A stretch of DNA of 24,382 bases, from positions 1-24,382 of the forward strand of contig QZIU01000026.1 of the NCBI GenBank assembly GCA_003599625.1, given 5' to 3'. How positions within the stretch are numbered: the first letter of the stretch is position 1; every line of letters begins with the position of its first letter. The position numbers and the translations under genes were made by a program. The stretch is from Candidatus Parcubacteria bacterium (GTDB lineage: Bacteria > Patescibacteriota > Minisyncoccia > UBA9983). Positions 1-21,034 of the stretch are shown one piece after another. The notes beneath the pieces were generated by a model. That model saw only the letters and a program-made list of their open reading frames with translations, made no database searches and had not been told where the DNA came from.

Positions 1-46
1 GCTTTAGCCTGATAAATACCAAAATTATATGGTTAAACCGTCAGCT

Positions 47-92
47 ATGACATTTCTACTTTGCTGTGGTATGACATTATCATGTTGCTGTG
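47..92. repeat. Imperfect 22-nt tandem direct repeat (tgacattTCTaCTttgctgtgG / tgacattATCaTGttgctgtgA) at the window edge
   Basis: Two adjacent units match at 16 of 22 positions. There is no supported ORF here. The window edge limits interpretation. Confidence 0.3.
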
Positions 93-110
93 ACAGAATT
101 ATTACTTTTT

Positions 111-1701
<1,591 letters not shown>

Positions 1702-1986: not shown

Positions 1987-2060
1987 TTAGGACGAACTTA
2001 ATTTCTTTGATAATTTAAACTTTATAATTTAAACTTTTTTGAAGGAAAGCGAGGTAGGAG

Positions 2061-3476
2061 ATGATAGATAACAGACTGCCGTTTTGGATGAGACTGGGAA
2101 TTACAGTTTTGGGAGGAATCGCGATAGTTGTGGGATTGCTTTTCCTTGGTGGATGGTTGCTAGGGGGGAAAAAAGAGCGGCTCGTGGAATACAAAAACGA
2201 GTCCGGGAGAGTTGTTTACAAAATCGTAAACAACTCTGAAGCGTTTGAGCAAAACCAGAAAAGCGCCGAGGGTGTAGAAGGCGCAGAAGATGTAGAAGAT
2301 GTAGAAGAAATAAAAATTCCAAGATGGGGCAAATTGCTTGCTTGGTTAATTTTATTCTTTGGCACTGTGGGTTGCATTCATGCAATGGCTTGGGTCCACA
2401 AGGCAACGGGCGGAAAGTTTCATCTTTTTCTTTTTTCTCTTGAGGACGGAAAGGCCGCTGCTATTTGGGCAGTAGACCGGATTATTTCCATTAAAATCAC
2501 CTTGTATGGATATAGGATGAGAAAAGATGGCGAGGTCGTTTATTATGATCCTAACTGGATTATCAAACCTTTTTATTGGCTGAGGCATTATCTTTTTGGC
2601 AGTATCCATTTCTTGGGAATCCCCCTGATTCATCGAACCAGCCAAGAGGAATACAAATGGAAACACTTCGATCCTCTTACTAATGAAATAAAAACCGAAA
2701 CGGGCAAGAGAGGATATATTCCCCTCAGGGAATACGCCCCTCTTTTTGAATTCAAGGATCTAGACATTGGAGAAGGCGGCCAAATAAACGTGCAGGCCGC
2801 CATTCTAATCAAGGTGGTCAATCCGCGAAAAGCCCTGACCAATGCGAGAGATTGGTTTGCGGTGTTGAATGACCTTATGCAGAGCGGCGCGAAAGAATTC
2901 TTCAGCCCGAGGACGATCGAAGAAGTCTTCACGAGTAAAAGCAAAACCGGAGAAAAAATTGAAAAAATGCTCTCCGTCATAATGTACGACTACATGTCCC
3001 AAACCGACGCGATGCCTTCGGCAAAAGACATAATGCTCAGTATGGGGGAAATTTCGCAGGAAGAAAGGAGCGGGAAAATAACTCTCTTGTTATTTTTGGA
3101 GAAGCATTACGGGATCCGACTGATATCGACGAATGTAAAGTCTGTCGATGCGGCAAATAAGTCAACGGAAGAACTTTTGAATTCTCTCTCCAAACCTGCC
3201 AAAACTCAGCAAGAGGCCAATGCCTTATTGATCATGGCAGATGCCGAGGCTGAAGCCTTCAACAAAAAACGCAAAGCAATGGAAGCACCCGGTGGAAGAT
3301 TGTTGAGAACACTGGAGGCAATTGAAAACTCCAGATTGATCACGCTGGGTGGCAAAGGAGAGGATATAAACTTTTTAGTCGGTCAAGGATTCGAAGGCGC
3401 GGGAGGCAAAGAACAAAAAGAAAGAAAGAGTAAAGAAAAAAAGAAAAATGAAACAAGAGAGGAGGAGGAAGAATGA
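2061..3476 (+). CDS. SPFH/band-7 (stomatin/prohibitin/flotillin-like) membrane protein with two N-terminal TM segments and a Lys/Glu-rich tail
   Basis: The C-terminal half (INVQAAILIKVVNPRKALTNARDWFAVLNDL...HYGIRLISTNVKSVDAANKS...QQEANALLIMADAEAEAF) follows the SPFH-domain pattern. TM helices lie at about residues 10-35 and 92-112. Confidence 0.6.
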   Translation: MIDNRLPFWMRLGITVLGGIAIVVGLLFLGGWLLGGKKERLVEYKNESGRVVYKIVNNSEAFEQNQKSAEGVEGAEDVEDVEEIKIPRWGKLLAWLILFFGTVGCIHAMAWVHKATGGKFHLFLFSLEDGKAAAIWAVDRIISIKITLYGYRMRKDGEVVYYDPNWIIKPFYWLRHYLFGSIHFLGIPLIHRTSQEEYKWKHFDPLTNEIKTETGKRGYIPLREYAPLFEFKDLDIGEGGQINVQAAILIKVVNPRKALTNARDWFAVLNDLMQSGAKEFFSPRTIEEVFTSKSKTGEKIEKMLSVIMYDYMSQTDAMPSAKDIMLSMGEISQEERSGKITLLLFLEKHYGIRLISTNVKSVDAANKSTEELLNSLSKPAKTQQEANALLIMADAEAEAFNKKRKAMEAPGGRLLRTLEAIENSRLITLGGKGEDINFLVGQGFEGAGGKEQKERKSKEKKKNETREEEEE

Positions 3477-4291
3477 TGACCAAGTTATTAGGGTTCTGGA
3501 ATTGGATTATTTGGCTGTGGGCCGCAGGTTGGATCTTTAAGGCGGCAATTATCATTGTCGGCGTTTTGATTTTAGGGCTTTTAATTTTTGCCATGCTTAA
3601 AACACCAAGGCCGGGAAGAATCACCTTCGGAGCCAAATTAGTCACAAAGAAGAGAATAATCTTGGCTCTTATCCTGGGCTTTATCGGCCTCATCGTCTTG
3701 AACAATCTTCCGCAGATCAGATTGGCCAGGAAGGTTAAGAAAGTGGAAAGAAATTTGACTGAAAAAGCCTTGAAGCCGCTCGAAAAAAGAGCGGATGAAT
3801 TGGCAGAAAAAGTGGAAACCGGAGAAGGATTAACCCTTAATGAAGCTCGCGAGCTTCAGGACCTGAAAAAAGAGATCACGGCAACCAAGAAGCTGGTTAA
3901 AGAAGGACCGCCGTCGCCGCCGAAACCGGCTAAACTGAAACCGCCAAAGCCGGTTAAATGGATCTTCCAGATCAGGGCAGATCCGGAAGTGGTGATGCAA
4001 GCTGGACTGAGAGGGGTTGATCAGGTTCCTTTTCGAGAGTTTGAAGCGGTCTCTGTAAGTATCAAGGAGAAAGAGATTCGCTTCAGCTACAAGAGGAATT
4101 CTAAGAAGAGAAACGTTCTACTAACCCGAGAGTCTTCAGATCAATTCTATTTTGGAATGGTTGATCTGGGAGAAGGAATCAAAATGCAACTCTGGCTAAA
4201 AGAATCCCCTGAAGGATTCGCAGGAATGGCAGAAAATTGGGACGGAAAACATTGGTATCCCAAAGTTTCCGCTCTCCTGCTAAAATCCTAA
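3473..4291 (+). CDS. Hypothetical membrane protein, co-transcribed partner of the SPFH protein. It has two TM segments, a coiled-coil, a Pro-rich linker and a C-terminal globular domain.
   Basis: Its start overlaps the SPFH stop (ATGA). TM helices lie at residues 10-40 and 60-78. An EKALKPLEKRADELAEKVE coiled segment and a PPSPPKPAKLKPPKPVK linker follow. I recognise no family. Confidence 0.55.
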   Translation: MMTKLLGFWNWIIWLWAAGWIFKAAIIIVGVLILGLLIFAMLKTPRPGRITFGAKLVTKKRIILALILGFIGLIVLNNLPQIRLARKVKKVERNLTEKALKPLEKRADELAEKVETGEGLTLNEARELQDLKKEITATKKLVKEGPPSPPKPAKLKPPKPVKWIFQIRADPEVVMQAGLRGVDQVPFREFEAVSVSIKEKEIRFSYKRNSKKRNVLLTRESSDQFYFGMVDLGEGIKMQLWLKESPEGFAGMAENWDGKHWYPKVSALLLKS

Positions 4292-4300
4292 AAAAGTTTG

Positions 4301-4340
4301 AAAAACGCAGCCTGAACGCAATGTTCAGGCTGTTTTTATT
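4301..4340. terminator. Bidirectional rho-independent terminator between convergent operons
   Basis: The stem cagcctgaac (4308-4317) / gttcaggctg (4323-4332) is followed by tttttattt. A-run aaaaa at 4301-4305 precedes it for the opposite strand. Confidence 0.75.
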
Positions 4341-4342
4341 TA

Positions 4343-4831
4343 TTATCCGCCTGTACCCTCTCTCGTTCCTCCGTCCCCTCCCTTAAACCGCGGGATGTCT
4401 ATTTGCTGAGAGGAGCCGTCTAGCTCGAATGTGTAAACCAAGATATTGACGAAGCCCCAGAAGCTGACCATTACAAAAAGACCGATGATGCCGTAGAGAA
4501 CAAGCTGTCCTCCTTTTTTGCGCTCGTCTTCGTCTCCGCCGGACTTTATATATTTTAAAACTCCGTAAAGGAAGAAAATAACCGCAAGAGCTATCAGGAA
4601 GATCACGATCCTGTCCATTATGTCTTCAATAATATAGAAGAGATTCCAGAATGTGCCGCTTCCTCCGCCACTTCCCCCGCTGCCGCTTCCATAAATATAT
4701 TTAGCGCCTTTGCCGTAATTTACCTTAAGAAAATCTTTTTTCTCGGCAAAGGAGACAAAAGGCAAAAAAACCAAAAGAAATCCCAGAACTTTGCCGGCTC
4801 TTTTTATAATGCCATTGATATTATTCCGCAT
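4343..4831 (-). CDS. Paralog P5: signal peptide, Gly/Ser-rich linker (GSGSGGSGGGSG), two TM helices joined by the loop SGGDEDERKKGGQ, and a Gly-rich C-terminal tail
   Basis: LIALAVIFFLYGVLKYIKSGGDEDERKKGGQLVLYGIIGLFVMVSFWGFVNIL. This is the last gene of the minus-strand operon before the terminator at 4301-4340. Confidence 0.75.
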   Translation of the reverse strand: MRNNINGIIKRAGKVLGFLLVFLPFVSFAEKKDFLKVNYGKGAKYIYGSGSGGSGGGSGTFWNLFYIIEDIMDRIVIFLIALAVIFFLYGVLKYIKSGGDEDERKKGGQLVLYGIIGLFVMVSFWGFVNILVYTFELDGSSQQIDIPRFKGGDGGTREGTGG

Positions 4832-4901
4832 AAAGTGTTTGATCTTACTTAGCGACCACTCTCCCCCGCCCCGCTCTTGGCAAGGCAGGGATGAGCAGTA
4901 A

Positions 4902-5165
4902 CTAGATCGCGCCTTCTATTTCCCACCAGAAACCGGCCAGAAAATGCATTATGCCGTATACACCCACCATCACGAACATTCCTATAACCCCCCAGATCAT
5001 ATGCTCTTTGCCTTTGTCTCTTTTATCTTCATTGTCGGCGCCTAGTATATATTCCACGATTCCGTAAATAAACATCACGACGGCAATGGCAAACATGAAT
5101 CCGATTATGGGATTAAGGACATTCAACTTTATGTTCGCAATAAGTTTATCCGCTTTGTCGCTCAT
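4902..5165 (-). CDS. Paralog P4: the shortest member (87 aa) with no cleavable signal peptide and two TM helices joined by the loop GADNEDKRDKGKEH
   Basis: FAIAVVMFIYGIVEYILGADNEDKRDKGKEHMIWGVIGMFVMVGVYGIMHFL. Confidence 0.75.
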   Translation of the reverse strand: MSDKADKLIANIKLNVLNPIIGFMFAIAVVMFIYGIVEYILGADNEDKRDKGKEHMIWGVIGMFVMVGVYGIMHFLAGFWWEIEGAI

Positions 5166-5183
5166 TATTTTTTAGCTTCTTAA

Positions 5184-5534
5184 TTAAAATCTTGGCAACA
5201 GATCATCGACGGTGTCCGGTATGTCGTTATCCAGATCAAACGTCCCTGAAAGGATATTGACAAGGCCCCAGATGCTGACCATCACGAAAAGGCCGATGAT
5301 GCCGTAGATCATAAGATTTCTGGCTTTGCCCCTTTTTTCGTCATCATCGCCCGCTCTGATGTAACTGACGATGGCAATAAGCAGAATAACGACCGCCACG
5401 GCTATAAGCAAGGGAACCAATTTGCTTAAAACATCGTCGGCAAAATCAAAAATGTCTTCCAAGTCGCTGATGGCTCCCGCCACGAACGGCAGCGCCATGA
5501 ACCCGAAAGGAAGTATTCTTTTTAATAATTTCAT
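5184..5534 (-). CDS. Paralog P3: signal peptide plus two TM helices with the loop AGDDDEKRGKARN and an acidic C-terminal tail
   Basis: LIAVAVVILLIAIVSYIRAGDDDEKRGKARNLMIYGIIGLFVMVSIWGLVNIL. Confidence 0.8.
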   Translation of the reverse strand: MKLLKRILPFGFMALPFVAGAISDLEDIFDFADDVLSKLVPLLIAVAVVILLIAIVSYIRAGDDDEKRGKARNLMIYGIIGLFVMVSIWGLVNILSGTFDLDNDIPDTVDDLLPRF

Positions 5535-5630
5535 ATTTTGATTAATCTTTTTAATTATTTCTCGACCCTTATTTTAATATTTTTCAAATTTATATTTCTA
5601 TTTTAAACTATCCGCGGCAAAATGCCACTA

Positions 5631-5996
5631 TTATTCCAAACTGTCGACGGTGGATTGCAAAATCTCCACTATCACCCAGGCGCCAAGCAAAATGGCCGTT
5701 CCGATAATCGACCACAACAATCCATTTTTGGCATCTTTGATCTTGTCCTCGCTTCCTCTTGCCATCACGAGCTTCAAACCGGAATAAATTATAAACAGCG
5801 CGGCTATTGGAATCCCGATGTTAATGGCCAATTTGGAAACGACCGATATCAAGTCGTCAAAACTGTCCGCAGAAAGCGGGTTGCACAAGATTCCGCTGTC
5901 CTCGTCGGTACATTGCTCGGCTTTGAGTTTGAGCAAAGGGAAAACAAGGAAAAGTAGAATTATAAGGGTGTAATAAACTTTTTTAATATTTTTCAT
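5631..5996 (-). CDS. Paralog P2: signal peptide, a two-Cys N-terminal segment, and two TM helices with the loop ARGSEDKIKDAKNG
   Basis: IGIPIAALFIIYSGLKLVMARGSEDKIKDAKNGLLWSIIGTAILLGAWVIVEIL has the same architecture as P1 and P3-P5. Confidence 0.75.
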   Translation of the reverse strand: MKNIKKVYYTLIILLFLVFPLLKLKAEQCTDEDSGILCNPLSADSFDDLISVVSKLAINIGIPIAALFIIYSGLKLVMARGSEDKIKDAKNGLLWSIIGTAILLGAWVIVEILQSTVDSLE

Positions 5997-6009
5997 TTTG
6001 ATTTAGTTT

Positions 6010-6453
6010 TTAATCGTCGCATCCCGGAAATTTATTCCACGACTCCGATATGCTTTCTCCGGCCAAGCCGCCCAATATGACATTCACTATCATCCACGCG
6101 CCGAAAACAATGACGATCCCCCATATCGCCGCCCAAAAAGCGTTCGTTCCTTTCGCCTTGTTTTTTTCGTTCCCTCCGGAAGTAATGTACATGAATCCCC
6201 CATATATAAGGATAAGGACCGCCAAAGGAGAAGCCAGTTTGAAAGCGGCAAAGTTAACGATGTTGGAAATAAGCTGGAAGATGTCGCAAATCCCGCAATC
6301 ATTCCCTTCGCAAGGAATAAAGTCGCCCAAATGGTTGCTAGCCAGAGAATCAGCCGCTCCTCCAAAAAACAACGTCGTTACGGAAAAGAAAATAATCGCT
6401 GAAACGGGAAGAAAATAAGCCGCCCCCTTGTATATTTTTTCCAAGGACTTCAT
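6010..6453 (-). CDS. Small secreted/membrane protein P1 of the paralog array. It has a signal peptide, a Cys-rich segment and two TM helices joined by the loop SGGNEKNKAKGTN (VirB2/TrbC-like topology).
   Basis: The likely true start is ATG at 6453; TTG at 6456 is the ORF-track start. The core LAVLILIYGGFMYITSGGNEKNKAKGTNAFWAAIWGIVIVFGAWMIVNVIL is shared with the four downstream paralogs. Confidence 0.75.
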   Translation of the reverse strand: MKSLEKIYKGAAYFLPVSAIIFFSVTTLFFGGAADSLASNHLGDFIPCEGNDCGICDIFQLISNIVNFAAFKLASPLAVLILIYGGFMYITSGGNEKNKAKGTNAFWAAIWGIVIVFGAWMIVNVILGGLAGESISESWNKFPGCDD

Positions 6454-7793
6454 CAATTATTCGCTAAAACCTTTGATAATGATTGATCCAGTTTCCTTTT
6501 GGCCAAAGCCACGGCACCGGAAACAGATAAGCTTCCTGATGTAATTCCCTCCACGGCTTCTTTGAAGATCTTTCGCGTCTCTTCCGGTTCGGGCTCGAGC
6601 CAAGATTTGGCCATGATCGCGCTTTTGTTTACGGTTCCAAAATAAGCGCTCTCGGCTTCTTCCGCCAGGAGATCCCTGCGGGGAGAGGCCAACCCGGTCG
6701 CTTCTGAAAACTTTTTCGAATAAACCCTCGAGGTCATTCTTGCCATGGCGCCGAAAGAATTTATTTTTGCCGTCTCTCCGGAATTTCTCATCAAAGCCAG
6801 AAAATAAAGCTTCCCAAAAACACTTTTGGTCTTGGCTCCCTTGATCTGAGGGGATTCCGCGATGTCGAAATTCAAATGGGGATTCTTTGCCCGAATAGCC
6901 GGAAATTCGCTGGCATAACCCAAGTACATTGCCAAAGTCCCTTTGGCGAACATAGAATCAGCCTTCATCAAAGCCTTGTTCCATGAGTAAACCGTTTTGT
7001 TGGGATTGGAGAAATCGCCATAAAATTTAAAAGAATCAATGGCAGGCTTGGATCCGGAAGAGCCTTCTTCGGCAAGAACCACCTTCAGATTACCTCTCGC
7101 GTCTTCTTTTATCACCTTATTGCCGGCTTGAAGAAGCAGCATCGAAAGTATCTCCTTGGCATCCGGGATATTGTTGAACTCTCCGAGCGCCGACCCCGAT
7201 TGAACTATATTGCCGATGTCGTTTTTCTCCGTCAGTGTTTCTGCCACTTCGGCAAACTCTTCCCAGTCCTCGGGAGGCTGACTCAATCCGGCGGACGAGA
7301 ACATATCTTTGTTCCAAAATAATACGATCGGATCGATCAAAAAAGGAATGCCCGAAACGGCCCTATTCTTCTCGTCGATCAACAACTCGGATATATCCGC
7401 GAAATTATCCAAAAAGGTTCTCTCCGGATAATTTTCAAAACTTATGGGATGGACTTTGTTTCGGCTTTTTAAAACGATGTCCTGGCTTAATATCCAAAAA
7501 TCAGGCCCGCTTCCCGACGCCAAAGCCTCAGTGACATCCGAAAGATAGGAAGCCGGGGATTTTTCCGAGTAGGTTAGCCGAATTTCCCTGTTATTTTCCT
7601 TATTGAACTCGCTGACGGTTTTATTCATTCCTCCTGCGGGCAATGTCCCCCAAAAATTAAGCTGAACGGCGTTCTTGCTCTTGCCCCCTTTGTTTTTGTA
7701 TCCCGGCAGCACTCCGCCGAAGATAAGCATCGCCAAAACCGCCACAACCCCGAACCCGACAAGCAGAATTATTTGAAAAGGAGAACTTTTCAT
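6453..7793 (-). CDS. Membrane-anchored extracellular solute-binding protein (family 1, sugar-type ABC SBP homolog). No permease or ATPase lies in the window.
   Basis: N-terminal TM anchor, then IRLTYSEKSPASYLSDVTEALASGSGPDFWILSQDIV..., DPIVLFWNKDMFSSAGLSQPPEDWEEFAEVAETL and GTLAMYLGYASEFPAIRAKNPHLNFDIAESPQ blocks typical of SBP family 1. The stop overlaps the next gene's ATG (TGATG). Confidence 0.7.
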   Translation of the reverse strand: MKSSPFQIILLVGFGVVAVLAMLIFGGVLPGYKNKGGKSKNAVQLNFWGTLPAGGMNKTVSEFNKENNREIRLTYSEKSPASYLSDVTEALASGSGPDFWILSQDIVLKSRNKVHPISFENYPERTFLDNFADISELLIDEKNRAVSGIPFLIDPIVLFWNKDMFSSAGLSQPPEDWEEFAEVAETLTEKNDIGNIVQSGSALGEFNNIPDAKEILSMLLLQAGNKVIKEDARGNLKVVLAEEGSSGSKPAIDSFKFYGDFSNPNKTVYSWNKALMKADSMFAKGTLAMYLGYASEFPAIRAKNPHLNFDIAESPQIKGAKTKSVFGKLYFLALMRNSGETAKINSFGAMARMTSRVYSKKFSEATGLASPRRDLLAEEAESAYFGTVNKSAIMAKSWLEPEPEETRKIFKEAVEGITSGSLSVSGAVALAKRKLDQSLSKVLANN

Positions 7794-7795
7794 AA

Positions 7796-7862
7796 TTAGG
7801 AACTAGCTTTTTAGGAATTAGCTTTTTAGGAATTTTCCTAACTCCTACAAGCTAATTCCTAA
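7796..7862. promoter_or_regulatory. Structured intergenic element with nested and alternative hairpins built from ttaggaa / ttcctaa units, between the methyltransferase gene and the SBP-pilin operon
   Basis: ttaggaattagc (7811-7822) is the exact reverse complement of gctaattcctaa (7851-7862). An inner palindrome ttagga-attt-tcctaa lies at 7826-7841. A second copy of the left arm, ttaggaactagc (7796-7807), gives mutually exclusive pairings. Confidence 0.5.
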
Positions 7863-7865
7863 CTC

Positions 7866-8378
7866 CTATTTTTTAAAAATTATTCCGTAATGATTATCTC
7901 CGGCCTCGAATTCTTTTTCTTCCGCGAAGCCTTGCTGTAAAAACAATTTTTCCGCTTCCTGTTTTGGAAAAACAACTCCTCCTCCGGTCATCATTTTTGT
8001 CCAATCGATGACCGCCGCTTTCCCCCCGTCCTTAAGAACTCTGTGAGCTTCCTTGGCCGCCGCTTCTTTGTCGGTTAACTGAAAAAGGAGGTTGGAGATA
8101 ATCACCAGATCCACTGATCCGCTCGCCAGTTTCACGCCTTCTTTGCCCTCGACATCGGCCCAAATTATTTCAACATTGCCAAGATGATTTTTCTCAGCGG
8201 CCGATTTCACGCTCTCCAAAAGATTTTTTTGAATATCTATGGCGTAAACAACCCCGTCTCCGTTCATCTTTCTTGCCGCCGCCATCACATAATGGCCGCT
8301 TCCGCTGCCGAAATCCGCCACCACCTGCCCGGGCCGGATATCGAAATTATTGATGATTTGATCAGGAGCGATAAACAT
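7866..8378 (-). CDS. Small class I SAM-dependent methyltransferase
   Basis: Motif I VADFGSGSGHYV, the acidic residue in ...YAIDIQ, and motif IV-like DLVIISNLL. 170 aa. Confidence 0.7.
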   Translation of the reverse strand: MFIAPDQIINNFDIRPGQVVADFGSGSGHYVMAAARKMNGDGVVYAIDIQKNLLESVKSAAEKNHLGNVEIIWADVEGKEGVKLASGSVDLVIISNLLFQLTDKEAAAKEAHRVLKDGGKAAVIDWTKMMTGGGVVFPKQEAEKLFLQQGFAEEKEFEAGDNHYGIIFKK

Positions 8379-8385
8379 AAAGTTT

Positions 8386-8510
8386 AATTTTCAATTTTCA
8401 ATAACCAATTTTCAATGAATTATCAATTATTAAATTCTTAAATTTTCAATTAATTTGAAATTTGATATTTGAAAATTCATTGCAAAATTGAAAATTGTAA
8501 ATTGAAAATT
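8386..8510. repeat. Copy A of a ~120-bp AT-rich repeat element with inverted termini (aattttcaat... / ...attgaaaatt)
   Basis: The 31-nt left block aattttcaattttcaataaccaattttcaat (8386-8416) and the ~42-nt right block ttgaaaattcattgcaaaattgaaaattgtaaattgaaaatt (8469-8510) are identical to 11303-11333 and 11382-11423. The middle differs. Confidence 0.7.
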
Positions 8511-8514
8511 CATA

Positions 8515-10977
8515 CTACAAACAGGTCATTGACGCTATGCTGTCATCCGGCTTCAGCTTCATGATTCTCACTCCCTGGGTCTGCCTGCCAAGAGCCGGGA
8601 TTTCCGTCAAGGAAGTCCTGATCACCTGCCCTTTCATCGAAATGGCGATCAATTCTTCTTCCTCCTGTCCTATTATCTTGGCAACCATCAATGGGCCGGT
8701 CTTATCCGTAACCTTGAAGGTCTTGATACCCGAACCACCCCTCTTTTGCAGACGATAATTCTTCACGCTTGTTTTTTTGCCGTATCCTTTGCTGCCCATC
8801 GTCAGGAAAAATTGATCTTTGCCGCCGGCTTTGACCACATCCGCGCCAACCACTTCGTCTCCTCCGTCCAGCCTTATGCCGCGCACTCCGGCTGCCGCCC
8901 GTCCCATTGCCCGAGCGTCCGTCTCTTTGAACATTATAGACTGTCCTTCCTTGGTTGCCAAAATCACCATATCGCCTTTCGATACCAGTCTTACGAACTT
9001 AAGCTCGTCATCTTTGTCCAATCTTATCGCCACGATCCCGTTTCGCCTCACATCTTTGAAGCTGGGAGCCTCCACTTTCTTCACTACGCCTTGTTTTGTG
9101 ACCATTATAAGGCAATTCTCCGACTCCTTGAGGGATTTGGGGAACACCAGGGCGGAAGTGACCTTTTCTTCCCCGGAAAGAGAGAGAAAATTCATTATCG
9201 ATTTCCCTTTTGTGGCTCTTTTGCCCTCAGGCAGATCGAACATCTTTATTTGATACGCTTTTCCTTTGTCGCTGAAGAATAAAATATCGTCGTGCGTGTT
9301 GGCAGTAAGAAATATATTTACGAAATCTTCCTCCTTAGTCTCTATGTCTATCACTCCGGTGCCGCCCCGCTTCTGAGCGCGATAAGCCTCCGGGTCGGTG
9401 CGTTTCACATATCCTCCCTGAGTAAGCACCATGACCTGATCTTTAGACTCGACAAGATCTTCTTCGGAAAGCGCCTTCACCGCCCTTGCCATGACCTTCG
9501 TCCTCCTGTCATCGCCATACTTTTCCTTTATTATATTCAGCTCGTCTTTTATGACTTTCAGGATCTTTTTGGGGTCGGCCAGCAAAGCTCTCAATTCTTT
9601 TATAAGTTTTTCTTTTTCCTTCAATTCATCTTCGATCTTTTGTCTTTCCAAGCTGGCCAGGGATTGCAATTTCATTTCCAAAATAGCTACGGCCTGCTTG
9701 TCGGAGAATTTGAATTTGGCCATCAATTGCTTATGGGCGTCATCGCGGTCATTGGAAGCGCGGATGGTTTTGATGATGGCATCGATATGATCAAGAGCTT
9801 TCTTCAAACCTTCCAATATATGAGCCCGGTCGAGAGCCCGATTCAAATCGAACTGCGTTCTTCTTCTCACCACCACCTCCCGATGGGAAATGAAGTATTG
9901 AATTATCTCCTTCAAACGCAAAACTTGCGGCTGAATGCCATCCACCAAAGCGATCATGTTGAAATGGAAAGTCTTCTCCAGGTCGGTGAACTTGAACAGG
10001 TTGTTCAAAACATTCTGGGGATTGATGCCGGTTTTGAGATCAATGGCGATCCGGACTTTCTCCTCCCTGTCGGACTCGTCTCTGATATCTCTTATCCCCT
10101 CGATCTTTTTTTCCCGGACGAGGTCGGCCATCTTCACGATCATCTCCGCTTTGTTCACTTGATAAGGAATGGAAGAAATTATGATTTGGTAGCCGTTTCT
10201 GGCCGACTCGACGATCTCCGCCTCGCCGCGCATCACCACGCCGCCTCTTCCGGTGGCGTAAGCCTGCTGGATGTCTTTGACGTTGTAGATCACTCCGCCG
10301 GTGGGAAAATCAGGACCTTTGACGAATTGCATCAGATCTTCCAGGGTGGCATCCGGGCTTTCGATCAAATGATTAGCGGCGTCGATCACTTCCCTGAGGT
10401 TGTGAGGAGCGATGCTGGTTGCCATGCCGACGGCGATACCGAATGATCCGTTTATAAGAAGCTGCGGGACGGCAGCGGGAAGAACCACCGGCTCCATCAA
10501 CCGGTTGTCGTAGTTGGGTTTGAAGTCCACCGTCTCCTTATTTATATCCACAAGCATCTGCTCGGCTATGGAAGTCATCCTGGCCTCGGTATACCTCATG
10601 GCCGCCGGGGGATCGCCGTCGATGGAACCCCAGTTACCCTGACCGTCCACGAGCGGATACCTCATGGCGAAGTCCTGGGCCATTCTGGCCATGGTGTCGT
10701 AGACCGGCACATCTCCGTGAGGATGATATTTACCGAGCGTGTCTCCCACTATCGCCGCAGACTTCAAGAACTTTGCCCCGTGAGTGAGGCCCGCCTGATG
10801 CATGGTGTAAAGCACCTTTCTGTGCACCGGCTTAAGCCCGTCCCGCACGTCCGGCAAGGCTCTTGCCACGATAACGGACATCGCGTAATCGATATAAGAT
10901 TCGCGCATCTCCTGCGAAATATCCCTGACTATTATTTTGTTTTCCTTTTCATTGGCCATATTATTCTCCTGTGTCAT
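8515..10977 (-). CDS. gyrA: DNA gyrase subunit A
   Basis: [30 protein letters not shown]...[12 protein letters not shown]... plus the C-terminal beta-pinwheel repeats. The true start is probably the internal Met of MANEKENK at about 10959. No gyrB is adjacent. Confidence 0.95.
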
Positions 10978-11296
10978 TATATTCTACCACATTTTGCTGC
11001 CCTGTTTCTTGATTTATTGATCCTTCCTTTATTTCCCCGATCTCTTTTATTTTTCCAAAAGAATCCTTAATGCCGCTTACGGCAACATCCACGCTGCCCG
11101 TCACTATGCCAAAGAATGTCGATATCGGGGAGGCTACCTGGCTCTCCTCTTCCGAACTGCCCAAACTTATTTTTAAAGTGGACACCCAGACAGTGACGAC
11201 CAAGAACATTATGACAAAAAGACTGGCAAAAAGGACCCTTCTTTTGATATGTTCCGGTTTCTTCTGCAAATTTTCTATTTTATCGATTAAGGACAT
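10961..11296 (-). CDS. Hypothetical small single-TM protein upstream of gyrA
   Basis: The ATG at 11296 is preferred over the ORF-track TTG at 11311. The TM segment is [21 protein letters not shown]. No family recognised. The 5' end lies in repeat copy B. Confidence 0.4.
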
Positions 11297-11302
11297 AATT
11301 AA

Positions 11303-11423
11303 AATTTTCAATTTTCAATAACCAATTTTCAATTCGTCGAGGCAGATCTAACTATTAAATTTTCATTTGAAAATTGTAACATTGAAAATTCATTGCAAAA
11401 TTGAAAATTGTAAATTGAAAATT
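11303..11423. repeat. Copy B of the ~120-bp AT-rich repeat element, in the same orientation as copy A
   Basis: Terminal blocks identical to copy A; see 8386-8510. Confidence 0.7.
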
Positions 11424-11425
11424 AT

Positions 11426-12061
11426 TTAATTGCTTCTTAATACCACTATCTCTCCTTTCTTTTCCGCCAAATCCTTCCTCTTGATAGTAAGTTTGTCCGA
11501 CGGAACAACTTCCCCGCTGCCGAATTCTTTGATAAACTGCCTCAACTGCGCTTCCTCGTAATGCATCGGAATAACCACTTTCGCCTCAAGGTGGGCGGCG
11601 ACACTCGCCGCTTTCTGCGGATCCATGAGATCGCCCCCGCCTATCGGCGCGAATAAAATATCCACTTCGCCTATGTCTTCTTTGATCTTAGGATCGAATT
11701 CTGTGCTCATCGCCCCCAAATGACAAATGGAAATGTCTTCCACAGTCAAGCTATAGATAGTATTATTGAGACCGTTGCTTCCCGTCCCTTTTATATAAAT
11801 CCCGCCAACCTCGTATTCGCCCTTACCATCGGCGAGAAAAGGTTTGCCTCCATCGGATTTGCCGGGAATATTTTCACCCCCATTGTAATCCTTATTATTG
11901 GAACTGACCAAAACAATATCCGCCGCGAATCGCGGGGACTTGAAATTGGATTCTTTTGACGGCGGATTAAAGGCGATGACTGTCTCGCCAGATTGAACTT
12001 TGAAACAAGATGCTCCGTAATAAGTGATCACCATATAGAATAGATGTTTATATAATACCAA
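11426..12061 (-). CDS. MBL-fold (UPF0173-like) protein with a degenerate metal-binding motif; probably a non-catalytic homolog
   Basis: MVITYYGASCFKVQSGETVIAFNP and ...VVIPMHYEE match the MBL-fold hydrolase family. DIVLVSSNNKDYNG replaces the HxHxDH motif, and HLGAM replaces HAGD. The likely start is the second Met, at 12034. Confidence 0.6.
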   Translation of the reverse strand: MVLYKHLFYMVITYYGASCFKVQSGETVIAFNPPSKESNFKSPRFAADIVLVSSNNKDYNGGENIPGKSDGGKPFLADGKGEYEVGGIYIKGTGSNGLNNTIYSLTVEDISICHLGAMSTEFDPKIKEDIGEVDILFAPIGGGDLMDPQKAASVAAHLEAKVVIPMHYEEAQLRQFIKEFGSGEVVPSDKLTIKRKDLAEKKGEIVVLRSN

Positions 12062-13211: not shown

Positions 13212-13319
13212 GTACTTTGAATCTTCTCTTTGAAGTAATTTTAAATTTTGAAAAAATGTTTGAATTTTCGAAATTCGAATTTGATTCAAAATTTAAATTA
13301 GAAATTCAAAATCCAGCTC

Positions 13320-13913: not shown

Positions 13914-13957
13914 GGCTCAATTATAGCACAAAAGCATTCAATCAAAAAACCTGGTAC

Positions 13958-13987
13958 TTGACACCTAATTAAATTTTAAAGTATTAT
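13958..13987 (+). promoter_or_regulatory. Consensus-like sigma70 promoter (TTGACA-18-TATTAT) with no downstream ORF
   Basis: TTGACA at 13958-13963 and TATTAT at 13982-13987. Confidence 0.4.
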
Positions 13988-13994
13988 CTATATA

Positions 13995-14140
13995 GAAGCA
14001 TGCAATAATAACTTTCGAGATGCTTCGGTGTTCCCTTAGAGTATCTAAGATATAGTTGTTTAACTATAAAGCCGAAGACTGGAGTCGCCATCTTGAGAGA
14101 CGCTGCTTCAATCTAAAAAGCCCCCAATAGGGGGCTTTTT
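13995..14140 (+). ncRNA. Candidate small RNA of about 145 nt, bracketed by a promoter and an intrinsic terminator. It is antisense to the pth upstream region. Class unknown.
   Basis: No ORF. Several internal hairpins: gaagcat/atgcttc at 13995-14026, cttaga/tctaag at 14034-14048, tatagtt/aactata at 14051-14068. It ends at the hairpin gcccccaatagggggc plus TTTTT (14120-14140). Confidence 0.3.
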
Positions 14141-14141
14141 A
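14116..14141. terminator. Bidirectional intrinsic terminator (aaaaagcccccaatagggggcttttt)
   Basis: 6-bp G/C stem flanked by an A-run and a T-run. Confidence 0.8.
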
Positions 14142-14146
14142 GATTT

Positions 14147-14502
14147 TTACTTTTCTTCAAAAAATTCAATTCCTGAATCAAGCAAATTGTTTTTAAGTAT
14201 CTTATAACACTCGTTTCCGATGGGTCCTTTTTCAAGGTAACGGGCTAATGCCCCGGATATCCAATCGGCTATTTGTATGTTTGCGTTTGCTGCCGAATCT
14301 ATCATTTCCACGCGGATAATTGTTTCAGGAGAACATTTTGGCAATAATCGCCCTCGGACAGCCTGCTCAAATTCTTTCTTTGTAACACCCTTTAAAGATC
14401 TCTTGTCGCAAAATATAGAGACGTTTTTTTCGGTTGCTGGAAGATATTTTTCTCATGATTGTGTTTTGTAAATTGACCGCTCTCGTCCAAGAAAATATGC
14501 AT
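14147..14502 (-). pseudogene. Frameshifted small ORF with a DUF3800-like N-terminus (MHIFLDESGQF...). It is split at a poly-A7 homopolymer (14424-14430 on the + strand).
   Basis: Frame 1 (14392-14502) gives MHIFLDESGQFTKHNHEKNIFQQPKKTSLYFATRDL*. One extra A in the homopolymer would fuse it to the 65-aa ORF 14147-14344 (...IQIADWISGALARYLEKG...). Confidence 0.4.
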
Positions 14503-14594
14503 AGAAACTTTTAGTAAAAATGATAAATTCTTTCATTTAATTAGGGCATTAAACTAATTCTTACTATACCACAAAATTCTCCTTCGCATAAGCT

Positions 14595-18176: not shown

Positions 18177-19292
18177 ATGAAAAATGGCGCCAACAAAAAA
18201 GGAGCACTCTCTTCCAGAATGATCAGGGAATACGCGGAAAAAGGTTTTATCCAAAACATTAACCCGGAAAACATCCGTCCTTCTTCCCTGGATCTCTCCA
18301 TTTCTGATGAAATTTACCGCGTTCAGGGGATTTTCCAACCCAGACCCGGAGAAAAGATAGTCGACCTGCTTAAAAGTGTCGAGCACGCCAAACACGATCT
18401 TTCTTATCCGCTGGAAAAAGATGTGATGTATTTGGCAAAACTGGAAGAATCTTTGGCCTTGCCAAAAAATATTTATGCTTACTGCAATCCCAAATCAAGC
18501 ACCGGGAGGACAGATACGCATGTGAGAGTTCTCACAGATGGTATTTCCCGATATGACGCTGTTCCCCAGTCAGGCTACGAGGGAAGTCTTTGGGCGGCCA
18601 TAACCCCCAAGTCTTTTCCCATCAAGATTTCCGGCGGGGAAACTTTAAGCCAGATAAGATTCTTCAATTGGGACACCAGATTCAGTGAAGATGATCTTGA
18701 AAAGTCCGTAAAGAAAGATAAATTGCTTTGGGATATTTTTGACGACAGACCTCTTGATTACGATGAGCTGAAGATAAGCGATCGGGACGGCTCGATCATT
18801 TTGACCCTTGATCTGAAGAGCAAGATCGTAGGCTACAAATGTTCCGGCTCGAACAAGATCCTTGATTTCTCCAAAATAAAGCACTATTCGCCTGAAGACT
18901 TTTTTGAACCAATAGTAAAAAGAAATGATCATTTATATCTGAACAAAGGAGAGTTCTATATCCTGTCTACAAGAGAAGCCCTTCGAGTGCCGCCTTCCCT
19001 ATCCTGCGAAATGATCCCGATGGATGAAAGAAGCGGCGAGTTCCGCTCCCACTATGCCGGTTTTATAGACCCCGGTTGGGGCTGGGGCGCAAAGGGAGAA
19101 GGCAGGGGGCGAACAATAACCCTTGAACTGCGTCCGTTTGAAGATCTTGTGGTGAGAGACAAGCAACCCATCGGCAAAATTAGATTTGAAAGAATGATAG
19201 AAATACCCGATATGGTTTACGACAAGATCGGAATGTCTAATTACACAAGCCAAAACGGACCAAAACTTTCAAAGCATTTTAAGACACTATGA
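18177..19292 (+). CDS. dcd: Long-form 2'-deoxycytidine 5'-triphosphate deaminase (DCD family, about 370 aa)
   Basis: GALSSRMIREYAEKGFIQNINPENIRPSSLDLSISDEIYRV follows the dCTP-deaminase/dUTPase-fold N-terminal pattern. The length matches the long-form family. Confidence 0.65.
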   Translation: MKNGANKKGALSSRMIREYAEKGFIQNINPENIRPSSLDLSISDEIYRVQGIFQPRPGEKIVDLLKSVEHAKHDLSYPLEKDVMYLAKLEESLALPKNIYAYCNPKSSTGRTDTHVRVLTDGISRYDAVPQSGYEGSLWAAITPKSFPIKISGGETLSQIRFFNWDTRFSEDDLEKSVKKDKLLWDIFDDRPLDYDELKISDRDGSIILTLDLKSKIVGYKCSGSNKILDFSKIKHYSPEDFFEPIVKRNDHLYLNKGEFYILSTREALRVPPSLSCEMIPMDERSGEFRSHYAGFIDPGWGWGAKGEGRGRTITLELRPFEDLVVRDKQPIGKIRFERMIEIPDMVYDKIGMSNYTSQNGPKLSKHFKTL

Positions 19293-20422: not shown

Positions 20423-20435
20423 TTTTTTAAAAAGC

Positions 20436-20480
20436 TGTGTATAGCCTGTGAACAACTCCGCCAACCCGCCGGGTTGGAAT
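20436..20480 (-). repeat. Second, inverted copy of the ~45-nt element found at 119-163, here intergenic; contains a 7-bp hairpin ccaaccc-gcc-gggttgg
   Basis: The reverse complement of 20436-20480 is ttccaacccggcgggttggcggagttgttcacaggctatacacag, about 85% identical to 119-163. Confidence 0.55.
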
Positions 20481-20533: not shown

Positions 20534-21034
20534 ATGGAAGAAGATTTTTTCGAAAAAACGGCGGGAAATAACGGTCAAGACCCTCAAAAAGCTAAAAGCG
20601 CCGTTTTTGATTTCATAAAGTTCGTTTTTATCGTGGCGATCATCGTTATACCGATCAGGCTTTGGATCGCTCAACCGTTTTTGGTCAACGGCGCTTCGAT
20701 GGAACCAACCTACTCCAGCGGCGACTATCTCATCGTGGATGAGCTCTCTTACCACGTCCGCGATCCCAAGAAAGAAGAGGTCATAATTTTCCGCTATCCG
20801 AAGGATCCTTCCACTTTCTTCATAAAGAGAATCGTCGGTTTGCCTAATGAAGAGATAACAGTCGAAGGAAGAAAAATTAAACTCAAGGAAGACGAGTATT
20901 TCGTTTTGGGAGACAACCGGGATCAAAGCTCGGATTCAAGAATTTGGGGACCGGTTCCCAAAGAACTGATAGTGGGCAGATCATTCATAAGACTTTGGCC
21001 AATCAATCAGGTATCTTTATTCCCGGGATATTAA
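20534..21034 (+). CDS. lepB: Signal peptidase I
   Basis: Catalytic-Ser box NGASMEPT, and Lys box KRIVGLPNEE...GDNRDQSSDSRIWGPVP. Confidence 0.9.
   Translation: MEEDFFEKTAGNNGQDPQKAKSAVFDFIKFVFIVAIIVIPIRLWIAQPFLVNGASMEPTYSSGDYLIVDELSYHVRDPKKEEVIIFRYPKDPSTFFIKRIVGLPNEEITVEGRKIKLKEDEYFVLGDNRDQSSDSRIWGPVPKELIVGRSFIRLWPINQVSLFPGY

Follow-up and report, generated by a model that had tools for sequence, protein, structure and literature searches.

Two AT-rich elements on either side of the gyrA operon

The 24,382-nt contig QZIU01000026.1 of a Candidatus Parcubacteria bacterium, here called the window, raises the question what a repeated AT-rich element does on both sides of the gyrA operon. Patescibacteria constitute a large share of bacterial diversity, and to our knowledge almost nothing is known of their gene expression. 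All genes of the window are housekeeping genes.

A sequence-only reading had described two copies in the same orientation, with exact 31-nt and 42-nt blocks and a diverged centre, in promoter-proximal intergenic DNA of minus-strand genes. This was confirmed (Table 1). Each copy fills the whole spacer that separates the stop codon of a minus-strand gene from the ATG of the gene that follows it. The arms of copies A and B are 100% identical, and the centres align poorly. As had been proposed, the blocks are built from reverse-complementary units: they consist of tandem 7-nt units, AATTTTC and GAAAATT, in inverted order, and the arms are 85–88% reverse-complementary over 24–27 nt. Period 7 was detected by TRF in both arms of both copies.

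Table 1. Coordinates of the elements and of the neighbouring genes in the window.
Feature	Position	Strand	Description
Copy A, whole element	8386..8510	-	125 nt; fills the spacer between gyrA stop (8515-8517) and methyltransferase ATG (8376-8378)
Copy B, whole element	11303..11423	-	121 nt; fills the gap from the MBL-fold gene's stop (11426-11428) to the small membrane ORF's ATG (11294-11296)
ATG-proximal arm, copy A	8386..8416	-	left block, 31 nt; minus strand reads ATTGAAAATTGGTTATTGAAAATTGAAAATT
ATG-proximal arm, copy B	11303..11333	-	31 nt; same sequence as in copy A
Stop-proximal arm, copy A	8469..8510	+	right block, 42 nt, TTGAAAATTCATTGCAAAATTGAAAATTGTAAATTGAAAATT; GAAAATT-type units, facing outward to the gyrA 3' end
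Stop-proximal arm, copy B	11382..11423	+	42 nt; same sequence as in copy A; directed at the MBL-fold gene's 3' end
Variable centre, copy A	8417..8468	.	AT-rich; extends the stem; shares only TTAAATTTTCA with copy B
Variable centre, copy B	11334..11381	.	GC-richer stretch TCGTCGAGGCAGATCTAAC, missing from copy A
SAM-dependent methyltransferase gene	7866..8378	-	Pfam Methyltransf_31/11/25; ATG without Shine-Dalgarno, 7 nt past the end of copy A
Operon bracketed by A and B	8515..11296	-	small membrane ORF and gyrA
Small membrane ORF	10961-11296	-	starts MSLID; leads the gyrA operon
gyrA	8515-10959	-	GGAG 6 nt upstream; mechanical ORF reaches 10977
Third stop-to-start hairpin element	7794..7865	-	unit family TTAGGAA / TTCCTAA / AGCT; fills the methyltransferase-to-SBP spacer

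The motif TTGAAAATT occurs 16 times in the window compared to 2.0 expected occurrences (0 shuffles reached 16), and 14 of the 16 lie inside copies A and B. Since the motif is therefore not scattered in the coding DNA of the contig, a DNA-uptake-sequence model was rejected. A profile of 33 full copies matched the window only at copy A (model positions 2-119, minus strand, E 4e-16) and copy B (minus strand, E 7e-14). The same core had also been claimed for the rpsA-pth spacer (13243-13295), but neither exact TTGAAAATT or AATTTTCAA nor a match to the family profile could be identified there; this spacer contains a different, weaker AT-rich palindrome (z -2.6). Searches against Rfam gave nothing at copies A and B even at E <= 1, and at the gathering threshold DUF3800-V was the sole match in the whole window.

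Copy B had been thought to supply the 5' end of the small ORF. This is the case only for a mechanically called TTG at 11311, whereas relatives share the start MSLID..., which here is the ATG at 11296, 6 nt beyond the end of copy B. The start of gyrA is most likely at 10959, behind a GGAG Shine-Dalgarno motif, which gives 814 amino acids as in the public record. The order of the small ORF and gyrA is kept in loci L121-L124.

The copies belong to a dispersed family of heptamer palindromes

The exact 31-mer was found in 59 metagenome contigs from many samples, with 11 contigs of one metagenome sample containing it, and an exact 23-mer of the right block was found in at least 120 genome contigs, of which about 84 are labelled Patescibacteria from many classes. 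As had been suggested, the repeat is thus dispersed and not merely a local duplication. Judged from their sequence, copies A and B are members of a dispersed family of AT-rich imperfect palindromes of ~65-150 bp that is found throughout Patescibacteria. Two copies were seen in this 24-kb contig and four in 2 kb of L147, where four consecutive spacers contain them. In the literature, nothing specific on heptamer or palindromic repeats in CPR was found.

Several of the matches carry a 'Gammaproteobacteria' label, which is doubtful; one of these contigs (L088) is nearly identical to a Shapirobacteria contig (L041). On a Terriglobia contig of 61% GC, the array forms an AT island, with 5 nt between it and an ATG. 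A single match on a giant-virus MAG contig is uninformative on phage carriage.

The arms of the family are short tandem arrays of the 7-nt units ATTGAAA and ATTGATA, read outward; ATTGTAA and ATTGGTT were seen as well. Homology spans the whole length of the elements, including unit order, the CAATGAATTTTCAAT block and the centres; the centres are variable. In 858 kb of related loci, 217 arrays had period 7, compared to 4-9 for each of the periods 5, 6, 8 and 9 and 1 in shuffled sequence. Arrays of two, three, four and five units were counted 86, 89, 182 and 6 times, respectively, so that four units is the commonest size with a sharp stop there; the loci were picked by motif, which biases all counts across them. 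Whole elements were located between genes of the same direction (>E> 40, <E< 46), between divergent genes (14) and between convergent genes (9), and among these contexts no bias for orientation or spacer type was observed. Single arms without a partner also exist. Of 87 such solo arms, 56 point to the downstream gene and about a third face away from the next gene.

Origin and spread of the elements

The variant TTCATTGCAAAATTGAAAATTG is common to copies A and B and was present in 0 of the 187 fetched loci. This private variant indicates that one copy was derived from the other inside this genome. No near-identical strain pair was found by exact-protein look-ups with gyrA (820 aa), the methyltransferase and the small ORF. 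The orthologous spacers of relatives with 83-85% gyrA identity contain no AATTTTC element, but other heptamer palindromes or none.

The third element in the window is outside the AATTTTC family, yet has the same architecture (TRF periods 7 and 15; predicted hairpin of -32.6 kcal/mol, z -6.8). In relatives, the methyltransferase-to-SBP junction is just 4 or 16 nt long and does not contain this element, which points to a clean insertion into a coupled junction of 4-16 nt. A relative of the third element was found in another spacer of L123.

The terminal inverted repeats of copies A and B had been called MITE-like. The inverted arms agree with this view, and terminal inverted repeats are indeed present. 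These are, however, variable arrays of 7-nt units rather than unique termini, arms without partner occur, and the genes of the window include no transposase. Target-site duplications had been suggested as a check. There is no flanking direct repeat at copies A and B, and none was found at the L120 pair or at the third element when compared with the empty junctions of relatives, with the flanks being so AT-rich that duplications of 2 nt or less are undecidable. Transposition, conversion, or slippage plus recombination are candidates for how the family may have spread.

The elements might be selfish or neutral repeat DNA, either MITE-like or a palindrome from heptanucleotide slippage spread by recombination, which has no function at both sites and persists because hairpins in spacers are tolerated. 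Dispersal with full-length homology and variable centres, the absence of the element from the orthologous spacers of relatives (which have other heptamer palindromes or none), the clean insertion of the third element together with its relative in a different spacer of L123, the lack of preference for orientation or spacer type, and the arrays in frame inside genes (see below) all fit this explanation. Heptanucleotides are also the commonest long simple repeats in prokaryotes, for which polymerase slippage was proposed (Mrazek 2007, as cited in PMC4679880). Still, this explanation is considered unlikely. The arms of A and B are 100% identical while the centre has diverged, the arrays stop at four units, unlike free-running microsatellites, and neither a target-site duplication nor, in the window, a transposase was seen. 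Moreover, there is no room for a native promoter 6-7 nt from a leaderless-type ATG, and a neutral insertion should thus silence the gyrA operon unless the element itself brings expression signals.

A putative promoter in the ATG-proximal arm

The favoured reading, to which we assign a probability of roughly 45%, is that the element is a dispersed palindromic cassette, resembling Correia elements or STRR, that would provide a promoter for the downstream gene and a long hairpin for the upstream transcript. The spacers at A and B leave no room for any other promoter. A consensus scan identified TTGAAA-17-GAAAAT in both ATG-proximal arms (9/12 matches, 17-nt spacer), which is a consensus match and not proof of function, with GAAAAT agreeing with TATAAT at 4 of 6 positions. 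In copy A, the -35-like TTGAAA is located at 8415-8410 and the -10-like GAAAAT at 8392-8387, followed by 8 nt to the ATG; in copy B they are located at 11332-11327 and 11309-11304, followed by 7 nt to the ATG at 11296. From the ends of the elements, the gaps to the ATG are 7 nt (copy A) and 6 nt (copy B), and both ATGs lack a Shine-Dalgarno motif. Both copies thus have the geometry of a sigma-70 promoter of the leaderless type, with hexamers 16-18 nt apart and the -10 hexamer 6-8 nt before the ATG.

The same contig contains leaderless-type genes with TGcTATAAT-6-ATG (pth), TATAAT-7-ATG (18177), TATAAT-6-ATG (23057) and TATTAT-8-ATG (20534). These genes share the geometry of copies A and B, and leaderless starts are thus normal here. 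The geometry is also that of the orthologous small-ORF gene of L124, which has TGcTATAAT-8-ATG in a 38-nt spacer without an element.

Across the motif-picked loci, arrays most often end 5-7 nt before the ATG of a long ORF (29/79), and of 60 spacers no longer than 14 nt just one has a Shine-Dalgarno-like motif. In a second group of loci the distance is 18-21 nt, and GGAG-type motifs occur in about half of these cases. The 56 of 87 solo arms that point to the downstream gene, the sharp stop of array size at four units and the AT island on the Terriglobia contig likewise agree with a promoter. On the other hand, array-to-ATG distances of 0-14 nt are wider than strict leaderless geometry permits.

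In the proposed mechanism, the ATG-proximal arm would act as a putative sigma-70-type promoter (TTGAAA-17-GAAAAT); transcripts would start on the ATG or only a few bases away from it, and the mRNA would thus be leaderless or almost so. Copy A would serve the methyltransferase gene and copy B the operon of the small ORF and gyrA. It can be argued against this that the opposite, outward-facing arm would drive antisense transcription into gyrA or the MBL gene. The lack of preference for orientation or spacer type among whole elements, and the third or so of solo arms that face away from the next gene, also speak against a promoter. In addition, other heptamer palindromes of like architecture, such as the third element, have no promoter-like hexamers, so promoter function cannot explain the architecture generally. 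The suggestion of a repeated regulatory module shared by gyrA-region promoters is retained only in part: the sigma-70 geometry at leaderless-gene distance supports a regulatory module, but it is not specific to the gyrA region.

Any four ATTGAAA units yield the spacing TTGAAA-17-GAAAAT, since 3 x 7 = 21 nt = 6 + 17 - 2. Four heptamer units thus generate the -35/-10 spacing by themselves, and a four-unit array is proposed to be a portable promoter. A wider form of this proposal is rather doubtful. It holds that four-unit ATTGAAA/ATTGATA arrays would be self-phased portable sigma-70 promoters, with both hexamers supplied by one and the same 7-nt unit at a distance of three units. Mostly as outward inverted pairs, they would proliferate through the compact genomes of Patescibacteria and occasionally beyond without target-site duplication, replace native promoters, split operons into new transcription units and even enter loops of housekeeping proteins in frame.

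Arrays in frame within genes

Of 126 matches to the 23-mer, 42 are inside long ORFs, where arrays are also placed in frame. Alignments with PDB structures showed that in-gene arrays occupy loops of approximately native length (+2 or -2 aa). In KsgA orthologues, heptamer arrays of different units are located at the same codon site, and short forms have 7 aa fewer. Together, the loop lengths and the KsgA orthologues indicate that in-gene arrays are in-situ arrays which change in steps of 21 nt and are not simple insertions of whole elements. In-frame insertion in the manner of Rickettsia palindromic elements was rejected on the same two observations, the near-native loop lengths and the unit differences in KsgA. 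The segments IENCKLKIEN or NFQFSIFNFQ recur in frame in many unrelated proteins.

Predicted hairpins and a possible role in translation

Copy A is predicted to fold into a hairpin of -35.1 kcal/mol (z -6.6) on the minus strand and -40.1 kcal/mol (z -8.9) on the plus strand, and copy B into a hairpin of -26.6 kcal/mol (z -2.9). All 46 of 46 distinct copies fold far better than shuffled sequences, with a median z of -6.75. Cognate arms, however, pair no better than non-cognate arms (-23.2 vs. -24.0 kcal/mol; permutation p 0.96), so selection on pairing is not demonstrated and hairpin selection via covariation was rejected. The stems of A and B are almost pure A-U, and a scan for intrinsic terminators reported none at either element. 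Neither a U-tract nor a G+C-rich stem is present, so the element is not a canonical intrinsic terminator. In read-through RNA of the upstream gene, the arms may fold into a long A-U hairpin just past the stop codon, which could serve as a 3'-end barrier, a stabiliser or a processing site; this part of the mechanism is the weaker one.

The hairpin could instead be a post-transcriptional or translational element in a polycistronic mRNA. The base of the stem would join the stop codon with the ATG lacking a Shine-Dalgarno motif for re-initiation by the ribosome, or the A/U-rich heptamers would attract ribosomes via protein S1, or the hairpin would be a site for RNase III processing or stability. 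In each of the three elements of the window (3/3), the stem base is indeed 0-7 nt away from stop and start, and the third element, without promoter hexamers, was inserted at a junction which in relatives is 4-16 nt long and without Shine-Dalgarno motif, implying obligate coupling. In L043, one family element was found within the LSU rRNA gene; an additional hairpin there could be tolerated or cut out. Similar roles were proposed for TAACTGA repeats upstream of starts without Shine-Dalgarno motif (PMC4679880) and for STRR hairpins (PMC2670836). Nevertheless, this alternative is judged improbable. Solo arms without a partner also adjoin ATGs (L152, L166, L168), other arrays are located ~20 nt before leaders bearing a Shine-Dalgarno motif, where a promoter and not a ribosome site is expected, and the orthologous gene of L124 clearly has its own promoter at the position in question. 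Arm covariation is absent, and elements occur in divergent and convergent spacers too.

Binding-site and guide-RNA arrays as improbable alternatives

The arrays could also be phased binding sites for a DNA-binding protein, such as a regulator, a nucleoid protein or a replication factor, that reads ATTG/CAAT every 7 bp. This would agree with the pattern of four conserved and three variable bases per unit seen across many unit families, with conservation residing in the sequence of each arm and not in pairing between arms, and with the array of L009, which lies between two perfect TTATCCACA DnaA boxes. Against it, no candidate protein and no gene association were found, a spacing of 7 bp does not match the helical phase of DNA, and unit sequences differ widely among loci of a single genome, making a single cognate protein unlikely. 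We therefore regard a binding-site array as very improbable.

Guide-RNA arrays, as in TIGR-Tas or CRISPR systems, were considered because TIGR-Tas is present in CPR bacteria, including Parcubacteria, and its arrays are poorly conserved short tandem repeats (PMC12045711). TIGR units, however, measure 36 nt, contain two spacers of 8-9 nt as well as box C/D motifs, and are located beside a Tas gene with a Nop domain (PMC12045711). Here, the period is 7 nt, variable spacers are missing, the copies are dispersed one per spacer, and none of the window genes, all housekeeping, encodes a Nop-domain protein. Based on the 7-nt period and the gene context, the TIGR array was rejected and is effectively refuted.

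Significance

A conserved 31-nt array that precedes essential genes such as gyrA, at the place where a promoter must sit, is a candidate native promoter that can be tested directly. With Saccharibacteria now being genetically manipulable, it could also become a tool. Heptanucleotide arrays have been recognised in cyanobacteria since ~1990 and, more recently, in Beggiatoaceae, and we know of no established function for them. The arithmetic of -35/-10 phasing together with the four-unit limit provides a specific and falsifiable hypothesis. If the wider form of the promoter proposal is true, this old puzzle (STRR, TAACTGA) would gain a concrete function. For annotation, the elements cause spurious TTG/ATG extensions of ORFs and can break or mis-join assemblies.

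Comparison with known systems

Correia elements (CREE/NEMIS) of Neisseria are, like copies A and B, intergenic palindromes of ~100-150 bp with many copies near genes, and their dual function as promoter and hairpin matches the role proposed here. CREE end in fixed repeats of 26 bp and show a TA target duplication. In contrast, the arms of A and B are heptamer arrays of variable number with no TA duplication and no sequence similarity, and the likeness is functional only. CREE are confined to Neisseria and carry an IHF site, whereas the present copies come from a Parcubacteria-type MAG and the host range of their family spans a superphylum.

REP, BIME and REPIN sequences are likewise palindromes dispersed in extragenic DNA, where they lie at the ends of genes and form hairpins in the mRNA. 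REPs are G+C-rich palindromes of 20-40 nt, mobilised by a RAYT gene flanked by REPs. The present family differs in composition and architecture, and the window has no RAYT gene.

Cyanobacterial STRR share tandem intergenic 7-bp units that can form hairpins. Their units are G+C-containing heptamers. The hosts are heterocystous cyanobacteria and the unit sequences are other ones, so the units of A and B are not STRR units, and neither the promoter-phased geometry nor the four-unit limit found here is known to have been described for STRR. For STRR, transcript stability or translational coupling was suggested (PMC2670836). An STRR inside a structural RNA gene, that of RNase P RNA, is attributed to Vioque (1997) in PMC2858038 and parallels the family element in the LSU rRNA gene of L043.

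TAACTGA direct repeats were described in marine Beggiatoaceae, Cyanobacteria and Bacteroidetes (MacGregor 2015, PMC4679880). Both systems consist of heptamer arrays of two to six units, mostly a few nt before start codons without a Shine-Dalgarno motif, some inside ORFs under stop-codon constraints and some before ribosomal protein genes, and both are patchy across phyla with no evident transfer mechanism. Nearly all TAACTGA arrays are direct repeats, inversion being known from one case, whereas the family here has inverted pairs and a different unit. They were interpreted as translational signals, and -35/-10 phasing is inapplicable to them.

Finally, a 7-nt unit is favoured in long simple repeats, with polymerase slippage as the proposed origin, as PMC4679880 reports from Mrazek et al. 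(2007). Compared to such repeats, the family described here has a four-unit limit, inverted pairs and homology beyond the arrays; slippage alone does not account for these features.

Structure of the two gyrA-region elements

Two exact blocks, one of 31 nt (AATTTTCAATTTTCAATAACCAATTTTCAAT) and one of 42 nt (TTGAAAATTCATTGCAAAATTGAAAATTGTAAATTGAAAATT), are shared by copies A and B, the two AT-rich elements of this complete 24,382-bp contig from a MAG labelled 'Candidatus Parcubacteria bacterium'. The centres between the blocks could barely be aligned. Shuffling predicts 2.0 occurrences of TTGAAAATT in the window; 16 were found, 14 of them within the two copies. The pair described in the sequence-only reading is real and far beyond chance. 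Both blocks consist of tandem 7-nt units, AATTTTC-type in the left and GAAAATT-type in the right block, and the arms are therefore 85-88% reverse-complementary. Two further claims of that reading did not hold: the rpsA-pth spacer, said to share the core, contained no exact core and was not matched by the family profile, and copy B as the 5' end of an ORF reflected a mechanical TTG only, as the conserved start of the small membrane ORF (MSLID) is the ATG at 11296.

All genes flanking the copies are on the minus strand. Read on this strand, each copy follows the order stop codon, 2-4 nt, 42-nt arm, centre, 31-nt arm, 6-7 nt and ATG, and thus constitutes the entire spacer. No Shine-Dalgarno sequence was present at either ATG downstream of the copies; other genes of the contig do have one (GGAGG before 19410, 3473 and 16757). 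The remaining window genes are housekeeping genes, and neither a transposase nor a Nop-domain protein was found among the window genes. TIGR arrays were ruled out by period and context.

Features of the contig
Feature	Position	Strand	Remarks
Five tandem T4SS-pilin (PF18895) paralogues	4343-6456	minus	
Solute-binding protein (SBP)	6453-7793	minus	
Third hairpin element	7794-7865		methyltransferase-to-SBP spacer, stop to start; units TTAGGAA / AGCT / TTCCTAA
SAM methyltransferase	7866-8378	minus	
Copy A	8386-8510		fills spacer between gyrA and SAM methyltransferase
gyrA	8515-10959	minus	GGAG 6 nt upstream; 814 aa
Small membrane ORF	10961-11296	minus	
Copy B	11303-11423		fills spacer between MBL-fold gene and small membrane ORF
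MBL-fold protein	11426-12061	minus	
pth	13913		TGcTATAAT-6-ATG
Gene at 18177	18177		TATAAT-7-ATG
Gene at 20534	20534		TATTAT-8-ATG
ftsA-like	23057		TATAAT-6-ATG

Every copy folded far better than its shuffles, with a stem beginning 2-4 nt past the upstream stop. Such a hairpin might plausibly serve as a 3'-end barrier, a stabiliser or a processing site; a canonical terminator was rejected. Cognate arms paired no better than non-cognate arms, which gives no sign of selection on pairing.

Other repeats and RNAs were also observed in the window. Two of the T4SS-pilin paralogues have a 75-nt stretch in common (81% identity; 4442-4516 and 5253-5327), and the cluster is kept in the syntenic relatives L121 and L124. 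The stop codons of the enolase gene and of the MazG-like gene are each followed by a 45-nt repeat (84% identity; 119-163, minus, and 20435-20479, plus), reading CTGTGTA..CTGTG..CCAAC(C/A)CGCCGGGTTGGAA. This repeat forms a G+C-rich hairpin, carries a DnaA-box-like 9-mer (TTATCCACA) in one copy and may work as a terminator module common to both genes. Among curated RNA families (Rfam), DUF3800-V alone matched in the window, at 13994-14110, plus strand (52.6 bits, E 4e-9, above the gathering score), inside a 680-nt non-coding stretch (13914-14594).

Distribution of the family

In a species-representative genome set, a 23-mer of the right block matched exactly in at least 120 contigs. Among the matches listed, about 84 contigs carried a Patescibacteria label, in many classes (Saccharibacteria, Parcubacteria and Microgenomates groups, Peribacteria, Berkelbacteria, WWE3), and a few were DPANN archaea. 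Exact matches to the 31-mer of the window, which is distinguished by a GGTTATT unit, came from 59 metagenome contigs of many different samples. These are the matches of an element family rather than of a local duplication; of the proposed 'MITE-like' element the dispersed family stood, and MITE status is not established.

A profile HMM of 119 positions, built from 33 distinct full copies, matched only A and B in the window, both full-length, best on the minus strand and with E-values of 4e-16 and 7e-14. Full copies are 64-147 nt long with variable centres, and their unit order remains recognisable (AATTTTC AATGATC AATAATC AATTTAC AATGAATTTTCAAT ...). On one contig (L147), four spacers in a row, in front of small genes, hold four such copies. 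The variant TTCATTGCAAAATTGAAAATTG, common to A and B, occurred in none of the 187 fetched loci, indicating that one of the two gave rise to the other within this genome.

ATTGAAA arrays also form AT-rich islands in MAGs of 57-65% GC, namely of Planctomycetota (L012, L059), Terriglobia (L033) and Nitrospirae (L072, L105). The Terriglobia array ends 5 nt before an ATG, and in L105 a prepilin-like gene has its start codon directly next to the array. Several TPA contigs named 'uncultured Gammaproteobacteria/Pseudomonadales' (L037, L047, L088 and others) have low GC and CPR-type genes, and L088 is nearly identical to a Shapirobacteria contig (L041) around the array; these labels look wrong. On five contigs (L131, L135/L136, L138, L163, L172) the 31-mer lies ~10 nt upstream of the start of a short conserved ORF, in opposite orientation to that start (MNQLSNKPVYDLEERTAKFA-like); in L135 this ORF is truncated by a second array.

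A predicted promoter in the 31-nt arm

On the minus strand, the 31-nt arm of both copies matches TTGAAA-17-GAAAAT, ending 8 nt (copy A) and 7 nt (copy B) before the ATG. Canonical promoters of exactly this geometry precede other ATGs of the contig that have no Shine-Dalgarno sequence; these TATAAT or TGnTATAAT motifs, 6-8 nt before the ATG, imply that this genome makes frequent use of leaderless mRNAs. At 10982-10990 the 3'-terminal part of the small ORF contains TGgTAGAAT, a possible internal promoter for gyrA. In L124, the spacer ahead of the orthologous small-ORF gene is 38 nt long, is free of any element and contains TGcTATAAT-8-ATG. The element in the window would have taken the place of this promoter and would have to supply one itself, since between the upstream stop and the ATG there is nothing else, and since an internal ATG lacking a Shine-Dalgarno sequence would be poorly translated from a read-through mRNA.

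In a four-unit ATTGAAA array, TTGAAA of unit 1 and GAAAAT of unit 4 are automatically 17 nt apart, and likewise TTGATA and GATAAT in the ATTGATA array of the other arm. This phasing fits several observations. Array sizes stop sharply at four units (2 units, 86; 3 units, 89; 4 units, 182; 5 units, 6; 8 units, 1). Where an array is followed by a long ORF, it ends most often 5-7 nt before the ATG. A Shine-Dalgarno-like motif was present in only one of 60 array-to-ATG spacers of up to 14 nt; a second distance cluster, at 18-21 nt, has a GGAG-type Shine-Dalgarno sequence in about half, e.g. in Saccharibacteria. Finally, solo arms exist, and 56 of 87 point at the downstream gene. From sequence, the best-supported mechanism would be a portable, heptamer-phased promoter arm combined with a spacer hairpin, to which we assign a probability of about 0.45.

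Several findings speak against a promoter. GAAAAT is a weak -10 hexamer, array-to-ATG distances span 0 to 14 nt, whole elements showed no preference for orientation or spacer type, the other arm would fire antisense, and palindromes of other unit types have no promoter hexamers. These same points make a post-transcriptional role, by stop/start juxtaposition, S1 recruitment or RNase III processing, a serious rival, albeit an unlikely one, especially as the hexamer-less palindromes sit in junctions that must need translational coupling. Selfish or neutral repeated DNA is likewise a serious rival and, like the post-transcriptional role, an unlikely one. An array of protein-binding sites is possible, unsupported and very improbable.

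Palindromes of other heptamers

The third hairpin element is one of these palindromes. Its fold reached -32.6 kcal/mol (z -6.8), the SBP ATG abuts its stem, and neither a Shine-Dalgarno sequence nor promoter hexamers were found in it. The same junction measures only 4 nt in L121 and 16 nt in L124, which identifies the element as a clean insertion; compared with these junctions no target duplication was visible. A related element was present in a different spacer of L123, between the MBL and small-ORF genes.

In L121-L124, whose GyrA is 83-85% identical, the orthologous spacers have no AATTTTC-family element. Most orthologous spacers in relatives contain palindromes of other 7-nt units (ACACGAA/TTCGAAT, AAAGTTT/AAACTTT, GTTAGGA/AGCT and others), and those of L124 are short and plain. 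The fetched CPR loci (858 kb) contained 217 period-7 arrays of at least four units, of many unit types, compared to 4-9 for periods 5, 6, 8 and 9 and 1 in shuffles.

Arrays inside genes

Long ORFs contain, in frame, a third of the 23-mer matches listed and 33 of 108 other arrays; PDB alignments placed these arrays in variable loops of about native length. They translate as IENCKLKIEN (forward) or NFQFSIFNFQ (reverse), and were seen in L015, L019, L022, L031, L041/L088, L051, L053, L084, L093, L102, L106, L108, L110, L113, L125 (10272-10308), L126 (10306-10340) and L127 (10205-10241 and 10307-10343). The housekeeping genes concerned include KsgA, TpiA, TsaD, Def, GatA, FolD, RlmN, MiaB, NifS-like and PcrA-like genes.

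In KsgA, compared in a 120-sequence alignment and in the DNA of three orthologues, different lineages carry different units (ATTGAAA, ATTCAAA, ATTAGAA, ATTAAAA) at the same codon site. Short forms have exactly 7 aa fewer (21 nt, three units), and unit 2 carries TGT, TGG or TTG, which keeps out the stop codon expected from a perfect array. A second array lies upstream within the same gene.

A full AATTTCC/GAAAATT palindrome (L043, 4565-4663) lies inside a bacterial LSU rRNA gene (2017-5583) and resembles an intervening sequence. A solo array is located between two tRNA genes (L034, 4978-5000), and an array on an Amesbacteria contig (L009, 5928-5957), flanked by two perfect DnaA boxes (TTATCCACA), may be the AT-rich unwinding element of an origin.

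Comparison with known repeat systems

No prior description of heptamer arrays in CPR bacteria was found in the searchable literature, the coverage of which is incomplete. By sequence, host or target duplication the element belongs to none of the following systems. Structurally closest are three heptamer systems. The cyanobacterial STRR are 7-bp repeats that form hairpins and have no known function (PMC2670836); a reference listed in PMC2858038 also places them inside the RNase P RNA gene. TAACTGA heptamer repeats immediately precede start codons that have no Shine-Dalgarno sequence; some of the repeats lie in ORFs, and their distribution across phyla is patchy (PMC4679880). Heptanucleotide long simple repeats are in general excess (Mrazek 2007, as cited in PMC4679880). 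By function the closest system is the Correia element of Neisseria, given that the element described here is predicted to combine a promoter with a hairpin.
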